A stretch of DNA of 64,000 nucleotides, from NCBI RefSeq assembly GCF_003991155.1, contig NZ_CP031293.1; one strand, written 5' to 3'. Position numbers: made by a program. Shown here one piece after another: positions 48,001-60,000 of the stretch. Source of the DNA: Escherichia coli. Its GTDB lineage: Bacteria > Pseudomonadota > Gammaproteobacteria > Enterobacterales > Enterobacteriaceae. Every line of letters starts with the position of its first letter. Position 1 is the stretch's first letter.

Positions 48001-51000
48001 CGTCAGGGACTGAGGGCAAAGGCCTCCCGGAAGTTCAGCCCGGTCAGCTACCGCGCACACGGCCTGCCTGTGTCAGAAAATCTGTTGGAGCAGGATTTTT
48101 ACGCCAGTGGCCCGAACCAGAAGTGGGCAGGAGACATCACGTACTTACGTACAGATGAAGGCTGGCTGTATCTGGCAGTGGTCATTGACCTGTGGTCACG
48201 TGCCGTTATTGGCTGGTCAATGTCGCCACGCATGACGGCGCAACTGGCCTGCGATGCCCTGCAGATGGCGCTGTGGCGGCGTAAGAGGCCCCGGAACGTT
48301 ATCGTTCACACGGACCGTGGAGGCCAGTACTGTTCAGCAGATTATCAGGCGCAACTGAAGCGGCATAATCTGCGTGGAAGTATGAGCGCAAAAGGTTGCT
48401 GCTACGATAATGCCTGCGTGGAAAGCTTCTTTCATTCGCTGAAAGTGGAATGTATCCATGGAGAACACTTTATCAGCCGGGAAATAATGCGGGTAACGGT
48501 GTTTAATTATATCGAATGTGATTACAATCGGTGGCGGCGGCACAGTTGGTGTGGCGGCCTCAGTCCGGAACAATTTGAAAACAAGAACCTCGCTTAGGCC
48601 TGTGTCCATATTACGTGGGTAGGATCAGTGTTGCTGTTGATTTACAGCGCCAGAAAGCGTTCTGATTGCGTTTCTGACGTTTTGTTTGCGCGTTCTGTTG
48701 ATCCGTTTCCCTTCAGGCTTTGTAGTTTTTAAAAAACATTTATGCCGTTGTTGTGTGTTTTACTCTGCGTGTAGGTTTATTTTTTCTTCGTGGGGGATTC
48801 ATTCTGTTTTAATCAGGAGCCATTGGCGTTGCTCAATGGCGGGATGCCGTAAAGTTTTACCGCAGTGATTAATGATGTGAAGTCAATCCAAATCAACGGA
48901 GATCTCTCATCATGAATCAACCAATACACAATGCTTACTGGTTATCCCGTTTTGAAAGTATTCTCAACAGTGCCCTGGCGCAACACCGTGCCGTCTCGTT
49001 AATCCGGGTGGATTTACGTTTCCCTGAGTATATGCCTGTCACCATCATGGATCCCGATCCGGATTCAGCGGTGATTTCCCGTTTTTTCGCATCCCTGAAA
49101 GCCAAAATTCAGGCTTACCAGCGGAAAAAAAGATGGGCCAATCAGCGTGTGCATGCAACCAGCCTGCGTTATTTCTGGTGCCGGGAGTTCGGCAAGATGT
49201 ATGGCAGGAAACATTATCACGTGATATTACTGCTCAACAAAGATACCTGGTGCTCGCTCGGGGATTTCAGCGAACCGTCTTCGCTGGCGACGATGATCCA
49301 GGAGGCATGGTGCAGCGCCCTGCATCTTGAGCCCTGGCAAGGCGATGGCCTGGTCCATTTTTCCAGGTGGACGCCTTCCCGTAAACCGACATCGTCTGAT
49401 GCTCGCCCTTCTTCCGATGACACGCCTTTGTCGGGTGGATGTTCTGATACCAGGAAGGCTTCAGACAAAAAGCCAGGTGAAGCCGCTGTGCTCTGGATCA
49501 AGCGTGGTGATGTGGAAGCGCTGCAGAAAGCCCGGAACAGAGCCAGTTATCTCGTGAAATATGAGACGAAGCAGCATGACGGTTCCGGGCAACGTAATTA
49601 TGGTTGCAGTCGTGGGCCGGGGCGTCTACTGGATGGCAGGTGAACCCGGTAAAACAGCATCCGGTGCCTGAGCGTATACCACGGTCAGGACGTTGGCTGA
49701 CGCCCTTAGCTCGTTTTCTGATAATCGCCCTGAAGTCATGAAACGGTATTTTTATCTGCTTCCATTCTCATGTTCATATTTCCCCTTACACTTTCACTGT
49801 CTGTCATTGGAAGTACCGATTTATTTTGGTGCTGCTCACTTACTGCCATTCACGGAAGAGGATAGTGGTGAACCGTACGATCCTGACTGCTGGCGAGGGA
49901 AGGTTCAGAACTGGTATGAGGTTTAGTGCTGGAAGATGACTTTGAATCCCGGACTGAGCAGTGAGGGGGCAGTGGGAGGATGCTCTGGTGTAACAGGCCT
50001 GGATTGCAAAATACAAAACCGGTTGTACACTCGTAACGGGCAAAAGGATACGGGCAATAACACGTGGTACCCGGTGAGACAGGATCTTGTATCGCATTAC
50101 CGGGAATATTCTGACAGGTGAAATGTTCTGATAAGAATCATCCTGAGGGAGGATACAACGGATATGCACGTTATTAACAGCGGCATTCGTGATGTGAAAT
50201 TTGGTGAAAATGTGAAAGTCGTCATGCCAGTAAACCTCTATGAATGTGAACTGGGGGATGATGTTTTTATCGGTCCCTTTGTGGAAATACAGAAGGGATG
50301 CATCATTGGCAAGCGGAGCCGAATTCAGTCCCACAGTTTCATCTGTGAGAACGTCATTTTAGGTGATGGCTGTTTCATCGGTCATGGCGTAACTTTTGCT
50401 AATGATCTTTTTAAGTGTGGTGGTCCCGATGCCTCTGCAGAAAGCTGGATACGTATCGTATTAGGTAACACTGTAACAGTGGGTAGCGGAGCGACTATTT
50501 TAACAACAGAAATTTGCAGTGGAGCAGTGATTGGGGCTGGTAGTGTGGTTACAAAGCCCGTGCTGGTAAAAGGCGTGTATGCCGGTAATCCAGCCAGACT
50601 TTTGAGAACGCTTTAATTATTATATTTACAAATCGTAAGCCAGAATTGACTCCAGACCATTATGTGCCTTATTCACCATGAGTGAAATGCGGGATGAGCC
50701 TGCAAGTTAAGAGGATATCGGAAACCAGCAACCAGGGCAGTGAGAGCGCTGTCGGGGTCATTGATATCTCCGAAGGGAAGCCCTGGTATAAGGTGTTTGC
50801 ATAAAATTATTAAACAGGCTCATTTTTAGCGATCCTCATGAAATTCATCGTAACATCCTGAATATCTTATGGTGTTTCCTGTCATCTCCGGTATTTATTC
50901 CGTTCATGCAAATAACCTGATGAAACAGGGCAACGCCATAAAACCGGATAAGGACAACATGGATTAACGATAAAAATTGTGATCCTGTTTTCATTTTTCA

Positions 51001-57000: not shown

Positions 57001-60000
57001 CGGCTGATCATGGTTTTCATGCGCATGCGGTTTTCTGGATCGATCGTCAGAGGGTTAAAAAAATATATCCCTTTGCGGAGCGGATTACGGAATGCTGGCG
57101 GTCTATTACGCATAACAGCGGTTCGGTACATCGCTGTACATATCAGCCGCATTATACATACAACATCAACATTCCTGTGCGCCACAACGATCCTGAAAGC
57201 ATCAATAATATTCGCGGTGCCCTGCATTATCTGGCGAAAGAAGAGCAAAAAGACGGGTTGTGTGCCTACGGCTGCAATGAAGTTCCTGAACGTCCTGCTG
57301 CAGGGCGTCCTCGTAAGCCTCACTTCTGAAGCTTAAGGCCTGAGCCTCCGCTCCTGGAAACACTCCGTCGGTAAAACCTTACCACCTTGCTTAATGATGT
57401 GAACTGAAGTCAACGGAGATCATTCATCCTGAACCTGAATCCGGTGTTCTGTCCCTTATCTTCCCGTTCTGCTTCAGTTCTTCACTTATTCCATCAACCC
57501 CATCCGCAAACCATAACACGTCAGCGCATCCACGGGCAGGACGCGTTGTGGGCTGCGCATAACGGAACATATCTTATGAATGCTATTCCTTATTTCGACT
57601 ATAGCCTGGCACCCTTCTGGCCATCTTATCAGAACAAAGTCATCGGCGTCCTTGAGCGTGCGCTACGTGAGCAGTCCTGCGCCCGGGTACGGCGGATCCT
57701 GCTTCGCCTGCCGGGGGAACATGACAACATCTTCAGTGACAGAAAAACCTGGTTCGGTATGGCCTTTATCGAAACTGTCAGTGCGCTGATGAATGCAACC
57801 CCCGGACGCGACCTCTGCTGGCTCCTGACCCGTCATCCTGAAAAGCCGGAATACCACGTGGTGCTGTGTGTCAGACAGGAGTATTTCGACGGCCCTGAAC
57901 TGGACCGGCTGATTCTGGATGCCTGGAGCAACGTACTGGGCTTCGCGTCACCGGGTTAAGCAAAGCCGTATCAGAAGCAGATCACCCGGGATGTAGTACT
58001 GGACAGTCGTTCGCCGGACTGCGAAGACCTGTTTAAAGACCTGATCTGGGCATTCAGCGATTTTGCCCGCGATCGTCGTGGTGTGTGCGATCCGGAAGCT
58101 CGTTGCCTTGCCGGTAATCCCGGGTATCCCGGATCTGCAGGACCGTTCTGAAAACACGGCTCAGCATCTTCTTCCGCATTTGCACAACCTTCATAAATCT
58201 CACAAAGGACATTCTGACCATGTTGACCACAACAAACCACGACAGCGTGTTGCTGCGTGCCGACGATCCCCTGATCGACATGAACTACATCACCAGTTTC
58301 ACTGGCATGACAGATAAATGGTTTTACAAGCTGATCAGTGAAGGCCATTTCCCTAAACCCATCAAACTGGGGCGCAGCAGCCGCTGGTACAAAAGTGAGG
58401 TGGAGCAGTGGATGCAGCAACGAATCGAGGAATCCCGGGGGGCAGCAGCATGAAACGTGTTGTAATGCCGGCGCTGGTATTGCGGAAATCAGCCCTGTCC
58501 CCGATGCTGGCGACACTCCCGCTCATCTTTCAGCTGACTCCTCTGGTCAGCCAACTGTTTGTCATCATTTCCTGACTGATTCGTCATTCCCTTCGTCCCG
58601 CCAGTCGCTGGTGTTTGTATTGTACCGTGCCGGTGTTGATGTGCGCTTTCCGTGTGTCTGCACCGGCTTAACAAAATTCAACAGGGTTTGAAAAGGAACA
58701 TTTCGTGCAAATAACCGAAGCCTTAATTTCAGAGCCGGGAGACATCCGGCGTTTTGTTCAGCAGGCGGTGGACCACTGGCCGCATCTGCTGGCATTTTAC
58801 TTCACACTCCATTCGGCAGAAGGAAATATCAACGGGCGACAGATTCATGCATTCTGTACTTCCTTTTACCGACAGGTGCACGAACGTATTACTGAGCGTA
58901 ATCACACGGCCAGTCCATCCTCGCCGGTGGTATTACGCTGGTTGCGGGAACAACATGGAGGAGCAACAATACGATGCCTGTTGCTGCTCAGCCAGACGAG
59001 CATTTGCCATCCGCGGGCCAGTGCCACGGTTGATGAACAATGTTCGCAAGTGGTGGATTTGCTGCAACAGAGCTGGCAGGTGATAAGTGCTGGCGGACAA
59101 TGCCGGGTGGAAAGGTGTTTTCGGGTTGCCCGGGGTGATACATCCGGCCAGTATGTTGCGTTAAAAACAGTCGCATTGTCTCTGGGGTTACCGGTTGTGA
59201 CCGCCATTACCCATCGTCCGGTACAGCGCTGTACATTGATTACAGCTCAGTGAATCAGCGCTTTCTGGCTTTTCGTCGGTCATTCTGTCAACGCCACGAT
59301 GTTTGACCGTTATGGGGATGCGGACGATTTCCTGCACAGCGTTGTTTCACGGTGGTGGATGATGCAGCACCGCTGTTAAAAACAGTCGTTCAGTCCTTTG
59401 TGTTACCGGTTATGACAACAATCAGCTGGTGATGGTCGTGTGAACCAGCTGCGCTTCCGTTGATTCTTATGGACTGATAAAGTTTTGTCTGCTGAATCTT
59501 TATACGGAATTCTTTTCAGTATGCGTACACGAATTGATTATCTGGCGGATAAATACAGTTTTACTGAGCTGAATGAGTCTCCCCGTCTTCGCCGGCAGTG
59601 GCAGGATGTTCTGGAGGAGTGTCGGCAGACAGAGGCAGGGCCAGAAGAACGGTTGCGTATTGCACTGTTGAATGTGGATTACGTCACCAGTTTTGAACTG
59701 CCTTTTCGCTTGTTGCTTACCCGTACACCACAACTGACTGCTATGCTGCGTGAAGAATGGGATATCAGCCAGAAAAATGTGGTGTTCAACGATAAACGCT
59801 TTGGCTGCGTGTACAGCCTGAAGGCCAGTCTTTGTGGTGTGCTTCAGGCCGATGCTTAGGCGTTATACGAATCCGGCAGAGTAACGGAAGCCGCGTGTAT
59901 GGCTCATTCCCGGAGAAGAATCCACGATGTGCATGTAAGAGTGCCAACCGACATCACCACGGAAGCCCTGCAGCGTATCGGCAATGGTTTGTTCCAGACC

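Follow-up and report, generated by a model that had tools for sequence, protein, structure and literature searches.

Three YagK/YfjJ-type genes in a selC island of Escherichia coli: probable ancient paralogues in a conserved backbone around a swappable cargo slot

Three genes of the YagK/YfjJ type lie within 9 kb of each other in an island of the Escherichia coli chromosome, and two of them enclose a block of metabolic genes. This raises the question of how the three copies arose and whether they have a part in the exchange of the genes between them. We examined this in a stretch of 64,000 nucleotides (nt) from E. coli (assembly GCF_003991155.1, contig NZ_CP031293.1), called the window in the following, to which all coordinates refer unless another locus is named. 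An earlier note on this DNA had proposed successive island insertions or internal duplication as the origin of the copies, and had regarded them as homology for recombination. Our analysis points in another direction. Judged from their sequences, the three open reading frames (ORFs) are anciently diverged paralogues of the PF11726 inovirus-Gp2/Rep-like superfamily, and it is rather likely that this trio, together with an AlpA-type gene, constitutes a conserved island backbone with a swappable cargo slot, the Rep-like proteins having proposed roles in DNA processing. The features concerned are these:

48912 to 49643, plus strand: ORF1, an intact canonical YagK/YfjJ-type gene (inovirus Gp2 family) for 243 residues, RefSeq WP_061092927.1
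49967 to 55710, no strand: variable cargo slot, delimited by backbone breakpoints and by Pfam and annotation
55711 to 56762, no strand: AT-rich stretch before ORF2, conserved and without annotated genes, 85-89% identical in the comparison loci L005, L007, L010 and L011
56763 to 57329, plus strand: ORF2, an intact member of a short Rep-like subfamily, 188 residues, in RefSeq a YagK/YfjJ domain-containing protein
57576 to 58151, plus strand: ORF3, pseudogene of a 191-residue family, a degenerate YagK/YfjJ paralogue, in RefSeq a pseudogene with an internal stop
58220 to 58453, plus strand: AlpA-like helix-turn-helix gene (PF05930, E 2e-10), which closes the ORF2-ORF3-AlpA block

At the level of the superfamily the family assignment of the earlier note holds for all three ORFs, which are present at 48912-49643, 56763-57329 and 57444-57959, and the motifs on which it was based were found (IRVDLRFP, LRMDFFY and RILLRLP; HYHV, HAHAV and EYHVV; EAW, ECW and DAW). 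The third ORF exists but its limits had to be redrawn: the true gene is 57576-58151, and the end at 57959 is due to a nonsense mutation only.

ORF1 is the clearest member. It matches PF11726 YagK_YfjJ_C (formerly DUF3296) with 124.3 bits (E 6e-36; cut-off 25.8 bits) and PF23343 REP_ORF2-G2P with 36.7 bits (E 5.5e-9; cut-off 27.8 bits), and it aligns over the full length with YagK (29% identity, E 5e-26) and YfjJ (31%, E 6e-28) of E. coli K-12. This comparison with K-12, which had been suggested before, was informative by BLASTP for ORF1 alone. ORF2 taken by itself stays below both Pfam cut-offs, with 20.7 bits for PF11726 and 23.9 bits for PF23343. It belongs, however, to a well-populated family of about 190 residues in the Enterobacterales, the members of which are named inovirus-type Gp2 or rolling-circle replication-associated proteins; many of them match PF11726 or PF23343, and several carry precomputed PF11726 matches. 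The ORF1 and ORF2 proteins are identical in sequence to RefSeq proteins already named as belonging to the YagK/YfjJ-type family.

For ORF3 the relationship had to be established indirectly. Neither ORF3 nor its intact homologue P0001 matched PF11726 even at E values up to 10; PF23343 gave no match either, and the ORF3 family had none in Pfam, NCBIfam, PHROGs or PADLOC. In an exhaustive HMMER scan, 1.8 billion representative sequences yielded only two distant full-length relatives of the family. One of these, P0307 (35% identity), matches PF11726 with 41.8 bits against the cut-off of 25.8, and the other, P0313, has a precomputed PF11726 match. With the two relatives added, the ORF3-family profile aligned with that of the ORF1/YagK family in hhalign at a probability of 98% (E 1e-13, 140 columns). 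Thus ORF3 is a relative at the level of the superfamily, not a member at the level of the Pfam model. A large, unannotated family of E. coli hypothetical proteins appears in this way to be a catalytically degenerate YagK/YfjJ paralogue, and this assignment is new.

Pairwise alignment of the three proteins, the check proposed in the earlier note, gave a divided answer. In BLASTP ORF1 and ORF2 were similar with E 6e-4 at 18% identity, whereas ORF1 and ORF3 (E 0.04) and ORF2 and ORF3 (E 1.7) fell short, so that two of the three pairs fail by the refuting condition of that note. In a merged alignment the three proteins share 16-18% amino acid identity. The homology nonetheless exceeds chance. With family profiles, ORF1/YagK and ORF2 were matched by hhalign at 95% probability (E 3e-8) over 167 columns; the direct comparison of the ORF2-family and ORF3-family profiles was not significant (E 0.018).

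The merged alignment shows two invariant positions, the Arg of the first strand (motif I) and the second His of the HUH position. The families differ as follows at the catalytic motifs:

ORF1 family: H-Y-H at the HUH position, S-Y-L-x-K as motif III
ORF2 family: H-A-H at the HUH position, Y-L-A-K as motif III
ORF3 family: E/C/F-Y-H at the HUH position, S-D-[FM]-[AV]-R as motif III

In ORF1 these are H101-Y-H103 and Y213-L-V-K; in ORF2, H86-A-H88 within a predicted strand (84-94) and Y156-L-A-K at the end of a helix (144-155). ORF3 itself has E-Y-H and Ser-Asp-Phe-Ala-Arg, its relatives C-Y-H and F-Y-H; across the family motif III reads SDFAR, SDMAR or SDMVR, and the column of the motif III Tyr is Asp in all members of the ORF3 family including the two distant ones. 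An HUH motif combined with a Y-x-x-K motif III is therefore found in ORF1 and ORF2 and is missing from ORF3. ORF1 and ORF2 retain the full HUH and Tyr-x-x-Lys signature of rolling-circle Rep nickases. AlphaFold models of ORF2 and of an ORF3-type protein (predicted local distance difference test scores of 85.5 and 72.9) agree in the succession of their helices and strands, and in both the HUH position falls on a central strand. Foldseek matches for ORF3 were weak, and a sequence search of the PDB with the family profiles found no solved relative.

All four gene types (ORF1, ORF2, ORF3 and AlpA) are under purifying selection, with ratios of nonsynonymous to synonymous substitution (dN/dS) of 0.02-0.36; the three ORF families give 0.06-0.36, and for intact copies of ORF3 the range is 0.10-0.31. 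The nonsense mutation in ORF3 is thus a recent lesion. It consists of a TAA at 57957-57959 in place of GAA (Glu128), where intact 191-residue homologues with 95% identity carry Glu; the top cluster of these homologues has about 2,600 member sequences. A start at the GTG at 57444 would add 44 N-terminal codons that are non-coding leader. An in-frame extension from CTG or GTG (57429 or 57444) was rejected as coding sequence, an 11-nt indel disrupting the frame in L005.

Two further observations concern ORF1. ORF1-type proteins of E. coli contain an insertion of about 40 residues of low complexity, rich in Ser, Pro, Asp and Lys (49368-49490), between the conserved LVHF and LW, which is present neither in K-12 YagK and YfjJ nor in homologues from other genera; database variants of 214 residues read this stretch in a different frame. 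K-12 YagJ was considered as an additional relative and proved unrelated by BLASTP despite its same length.

The second line of evidence is gene order. The succession ORF1, variable slot, ORF2, ORF3, AlpA recurs in other E. coli islands, for which L005/L006, L007, L011 and L013 are the examples. In L005 and L006 a gene for 407 residues is followed by an ORF1-type gene, a yfjI-like DUF3987 gene (31% identity to K-12 YfjI), an ORF2-type gene, an ORF3-type gene, AlpA and the pap operon. L007 and L011 have an ORF1-type gene, ireA with insertion sequence (IS) elements, and then the ORF2-type and ORF3-type genes; AlpA comes next in L011, and the L007 DNA compared ends just past ORF3. CFT073 (L009) and L010 carry pgt or dsd genes and then ORF2-ORF3-AlpA, with no ORF1 within 10 kb.

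In the window the slot holds genes for a hexapeptide acyltransferase, a PfkB pseudouridine kinase, a PsuG glycosidase, a NupC transporter and a kinase or regulator of winged helix-turn-helix (wHTH)-PfkB type. Similarity of the backbone to other islands ends at 49743 or 49966 and restarts at 55711-55935, so the pseudouridine cluster fills the variable slot. The earlier statement that the copies bracket metabolic cargo is confirmed for ORF1 and ORF2, and the content of the slot varies between genomes. Since the breakpoints differ from one comparison to the next, they fit recombination within the flanking backbone and not at a fixed site; a search for att-like direct repeats at the slot borders found none. 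ORF1-type DNA was present in 1879 of 5426 complete E. coli genomes and the ORF2-ORF3-AlpA block, at a query coverage of at least 80%, in 1538, while the exact configuration of the window with its pseudouridine cargo occurred in 25. No remnant of the yfjI-like DUF3987 gene was found in the window by tblastn. Within the cargo there is an inverted repeat of 68 nt (51245-51312 and 55143-55210, 74% complementary), which exists because the two PfkB paralogues, pseudouridine kinase and wHTH-PfkB kinase/regulator, are opposed.

The AT-rich stretch at 55711-56762 contains two tandem repeats (15 nt, 3.4 copies, at 55769-55821; 9 nt, 3.3 copies, at 55899-55928) and had no Rfam match. It is a candidate regulatory or origin region.

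The pairing of an intact Rep-like gene with an ORF3-type gene extends to the distant ORF3 relatives. In both L014 and L016 an intact Rep-like gene, of the ORF2 type or the canonical YagK type, precedes the ORF3-type gene, which is followed by a UCP030791 gene. The two are adjacent in L016, and in L014 one reverse-strand gene intervenes. AlpA lies upstream in both loci, and in L016 a divergent GTPase/DUF932 module is alongside. A Klebsiella locus has an ORF2-type gene at the head of a group of genes that resemble phage-defence cargo.

The trio also has DNA sites in common, of two kinds, a palindrome and a leader element of 68 nt:

46835 to 46846, no strand: palindrome site 1, GTAA-N4-TTAC, in conserved backbone between the 407-residue gene and ORF1
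48849 to 48861, no strand: palindrome site 2, GTAAAGTTTTACC, 63 nt upstream of ORF1
48849 to 48916, plus strand: copy A of the 68-nt element, which ends at the ORF1 ATG, 74% identical to copy B (E 4e-8)
56683 to 56695, no strand: palindrome site 3, GTAAGTTATTACC, 80 nt upstream of ORF2
57371 to 57383, no strand: palindrome site 4, GTAAAACCTTACC, 42 nt past the ORF2 stop and 205 nt upstream of ORF3
57371 to 57433, plus strand: copy B of the 68-nt element, in the ORF2-ORF3 spacer, with CTG for ATG, 147 nt before the ORF3 start

In the whole window the pattern GTAA-N4-TTACC has only three sites (48849, 56683 and 57371), each upstream of one of the three genes. They give four matches, 57371 matching on both strands, where 0.29 are expected, and none of 100 shuffled sequences reached four. 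The relaxed pattern GTAA-N4-TTAC has four sites, all in the island backbone (0.83 expected; four were reached in 2 of 100 shuffles). Palindrome sites occur at equal positions in seven other E. coli loci, site 1 in L005, L007, L008, L011 and L013; copy A of the 68-nt element is conserved in L005 and L007. The arms of the palindrome are conserved and its spacer is variable. A structured RNA or a single-stranded DNA hairpin was rejected for the 68-nt element, folding, covariation and Rfam all being negative. Conserved arms, no significant folding and no Rfam family together suit an operator bound by a protein better than they suit an RNA or a hairpin origin.

Inside a papI/FaeA-family gene (L005, 9358-9371; L009, 12179-12192), which lies downstream of AlpA in islands carrying pap, GTAA-N4-TTACC is likewise matched perfectly on both strands. 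This match may be due to chance or be a further target of the same putative binding protein.

A possible interpretation of these findings is the following. ORF1 and ORF2 would be metal-dependent proteins that nick single-stranded DNA or bind an origin. They would serve the replication or maintenance of the excised island, beside excision controlled by AlpA and, in loci that have it, the YfjI-like helicase/primase. The ORF3-type gene always follows an intact Rep-like gene, and its protein could be a partner or regulator of the latter with no catalytic activity of its own; the palindrome could be a common operator or Rep-binding site which couples expression of the trio. Ordinary recombination would swap the cargo of the slot, acting on orthologous segments of the backbone in different islands and not on the three paralogues. 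Such orthologous copies are found in up to six places per genome at 90-95% identity and could mediate the exchange.

Several points weigh against this reading. The literature reports no function for YagK, YfjJ, DUF3296 or inovirus Gp2-like proteins; the island papers treat proteins of the YagK/YfjJ type only as island-associated, with no function assigned (PMC6174562; PMC9769692; bioRxiv 10.1101/2024.08.29.610337). Nor did literature searches find a report of site-specific nicking of single-stranded DNA by such proteins in a metal-dependent reaction with a covalent 5'-phosphotyrosine intermediate. Neither the regions upstream of K-12 yagK and yfjJ nor the distant loci have the palindrome. Folding of the 68-nt elements was not significantly more stable than that of shuffled sequences (z -1.7 and -1.8), with no covariation, and neither an origin-like hairpin nor a nick site was found. 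A scan for sigma-70 promoters found no consensus beside the palindromes and gave fewer promoter-like sites for the region than for shuffled sequence. Gene order was inspected in a handful of loci and not systematically. The loss of the Tyr in ORF3 was placed by a MAFFT alignment of the C-terminal helix, which lies outside the hhalign match. Finally, the yfjI-like gene is absent and ORF3 is broken, so that the module may not work in the copy studied here.

The strongest rival reading, which we consider possible but clearly less probable, is that the three are domesticated HUH-derived DNA-binding regulators that lack nuclease activity and control genes of the island or its cargo rather than replication. 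The operator-like palindromes upstream of each gene, with their arms kept and the spacer varying, speak for it, as do the missing hairpin origin and an ORF3 family that has lost its catalytic residues and is still under purifying selection. The genes moreover persist in islands that are seemingly immobile and ridden with IS elements. Yet both His residues and Tyr-x-x-Lys are invariant across genera in the ORF1 and ORF2 families, a conservation that is difficult to account for if the proteins have no catalytic role, and Pfam and PHROG tie these two families to replication initiators.

The proposal of the earlier note, in the form that the copies arose recently by internal duplication or by the successive insertion of related islands and now act as recombination repeats around the cargo, seems improbable. 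It would account for the position of ORF1 and ORF2 on either side of the cargo and for the upstream element common to ORF1 and ORF3, and the island is indeed rich in IS fragments. Serial joining of modules also has a precedent elsewhere: L013 contains at 8257-8718 a chimera in which codons 1 to about 60 of an ORF2-type gene are joined to the last 90 or so codons of an ORF1-type gene (from about 153 onwards). The chimera is flanked by a TIR-domain cargo gene and ireA, and so stands between two cargo blocks; a complete ORF1 is found upstream and ORF2-ORF3-AlpA downstream. This indicates that modules in other islands were sometimes joined in series and collapsed, and the chimera looks like the scar of two serially joined modules.

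At the locus studied here the evidence is against such an origin. Internal duplication does not agree with the low amino acid identity, with coding DNA that has no similarity, or with the membership of each gene in its own subfamily, conserved to 86-97% over thousands of E. coli sequences. As mutual homology for recombination the copies offer only the 68 nt at 74% identity, with a longest exact run of 13 nt; sensitive blastn of the ORF1 region against the ORF2/ORF3 region found nothing beyond this element. Successive insertions are not indicated either, there being one integrase, by tRNA-Sec, and the same gene order with other cargo in other islands. The source genome has a single copy of each type. 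The reading by duplication or insertion is largely refuted at this locus, which has ordinary island anatomy with no recent duplication.

A bolder version, to which we give about as little weight, would make the trio, the palindromes and AlpA an active DNA-processing machine instead of a passive backbone. Either the conserved AT-rich region would contain an origin from which the excised island replicates by a rolling circle, or the cargo between ORF1 and ORF2 would be captured and exchanged by HUH one-ended transfer, as with IS91/ISCR; the L013 chimera would then be the scar of a circular or tandem intermediate. If this were true, HUH cargo transfer would account for the turnover of the cargo slot in pathogenicity and fitness islands of E. 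coli.

It is very unlikely that a filamentous (inovirus) prophage left these genes behind. The RefSeq product name, inovirus Gp2 family, and the match of ORF1 to PF23343 suggest it, but no inovirus genes for structure, assembly or single-stranded DNA binding are annotated in the 45-kb island, the context is an integrase, AlpA, GTPase, antirestriction and toxin-antitoxin island like CP4-57, and the proteins have about half the length of gpII of the Ff phages, which has about 410 residues. Just as improbable is that ORF1 is the sole true member of the family and that ORF2 and ORF3 resemble it by short chance motifs: the weak pairwise BLASTP scores, the sub-threshold Pfam results of ORF2 and ORF3 alone and the failure of their two profiles to match each other are outweighed by the two hhalign matches over 140-167 columns, by the PF11726 or PF23343 matches of many ORF2-family members and both distant ORF3 relatives, and by the shared order of predicted secondary structure.

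How does the locus compare with known systems? K-12 carries YagK in CP4-6 and YfjJ in CP4-57. ORF1 aligns with them end to end and has RVDL, HYH and YLxK...FGCS in common with them, and the surroundings are alike, with AlpA, a YfjP-like GTPase, DUF932, antirestriction, RadC and toxin-antitoxin genes, and a yfjI-like DUF3987 gene in the sister loci. Unlike YagK and YfjJ, ORF1 has the insertion of about 40 residues, ORF2 belongs to a separate, shorter subfamily and ORF3 is degenerate. The gene order also differs, being Rep-like, (yfjI-like), Rep-like, degenerate, alpA here and alpA-yfjI-yfjJ in K-12, and the K-12 islands have one copy each whereas the module described here has three. In comparison with HUH Reps such as inovirus gpII (PF23343), parvovirus NS1/Rep and SIRV1 ORF119, the present genes lie outside any phage or plasmid context, lack a recognisable origin hairpin and are not fused to a helicase domain; ORF3 is without the catalytic residues.

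Genes of this kind have been noted in other islands. The core genes described for int-alpA islands of Pseudomonas include RadC, YqaJ and an 'inovirus Gp2-like protein' (bioRxiv 10.1101/2024.08.29.610337); E. coli islands at selC, pheU and pheV have the same kind of backbone gene (PMC6174562), and at the ireA locus of ST127 a Gp2 gene adjacent to ireA was noted (PMC9769692). The last arrangement is of the same kind as that in L007 and L011. All these islands are tRNA-associated and have the backbone gene beside variable cargo. As far as the available text of these papers goes, they treat a single marker gene and report no trio in fixed order, no degenerate member and no shared upstream sites. 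Both the gene family and the kind of island are known, and what is new is small: the assignment of ORF3, the fixed trio, and the palindrome with the leader. The scaffold of fixed order with its swappable slot can serve as a landmark for delimiting modules in E. coli islands. The palindrome and the 68-nt leader are DNA targets for biochemistry on a family that is present in about one third of complete E. coli genomes.

The setting of the trio was read off the annotated record NZ_CP041996.1, in which the coordinate is that of the window plus 32001. The window is E. coli chromosome, and 46500-60500 is 100% identical to several complete E. coli chromosomes. The three-gene region sits in a selC island of about 45 kb with one integrase. 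Its left limit is after setC, at about 36.3 kb of the window, and its far limit is the single tyrosine integrase adjoining tRNA-Sec, 17 kb past the window; a tRNA scan of the window found none, the selC tRNA being outside. The features of a CP4-57/CP4-6-type (P4-like) tRNA-associated island are all present, namely the integrase by tRNA-Sec, AlpA, a YfjJ/YagK-type gene and the distal module. The island is a mosaic in which fragments of IS3, IS66 and IS110 are mixed with several blocks of metabolic cargo. Further features around the trio are:

37033 to 44874, minus strand: divergent island module with GTPase, DUF932, antirestriction, RadC, YeeU/CbtA and DUF4942 genes (annotation)
47371 to 48627, plus strand: IS3 insertion that splits conserved backbone upstream of ORF1 (annotation)
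58705 to 59253, plus strand: ORF4, hypothetical protein of putative UCP030791 (PF27752) type, by its position, in which it regularly comes after the ORF3-type gene

The junction between the GTPase module and the Rep-like module recurs in L007, L016 and L017. Between the reverse-strand GTPase module and ORF1 lies an ORF for 407 residues (44975-46198; 32-34% guanine plus cytosine), with no match in Pfam, NCBIfam, PHROGs or PADLOC. A counterpart at the same position is of equal length in L005 and L006 and has 376 residues in L007 and L011. The IS3 copy lies between palindrome site 1 and ORF1; similarity to the backbone of L007 and L011, in which the flanks are contiguous, ends at 47363 or 47370 and restarts at 48628.

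ORF4 was considered as a fourth YagK/YfjJ paralogue and found no support in hhalign (E 0.08, 0.049 and 0.7). Local library scans, including NCBIfam, PHROGs and PADLOC, gave no matches for it. In L013, L014 and L016 the genes after the ORF3-type gene (182, 186 and 157 residues) have precomputed PF27752 matches.

To the left of the island, 15391-32000 contains iatC, a very large inverse autotransporter gene of about 10 kb, eilA, and SipB/SipD/SycD-like genes for type III secretion translocators, beside yicS and nlpA. On the other side of the trio, 59521-64000 carries a truncated DNA-binding gene (including an ECs1377-family ORF at 59485-59859), an IS66 fragment, fragments of melA and of a bgl phosphotransferase system and then an intact tnaCAB operon; this whole stretch lies within the selC island and is not core genome.

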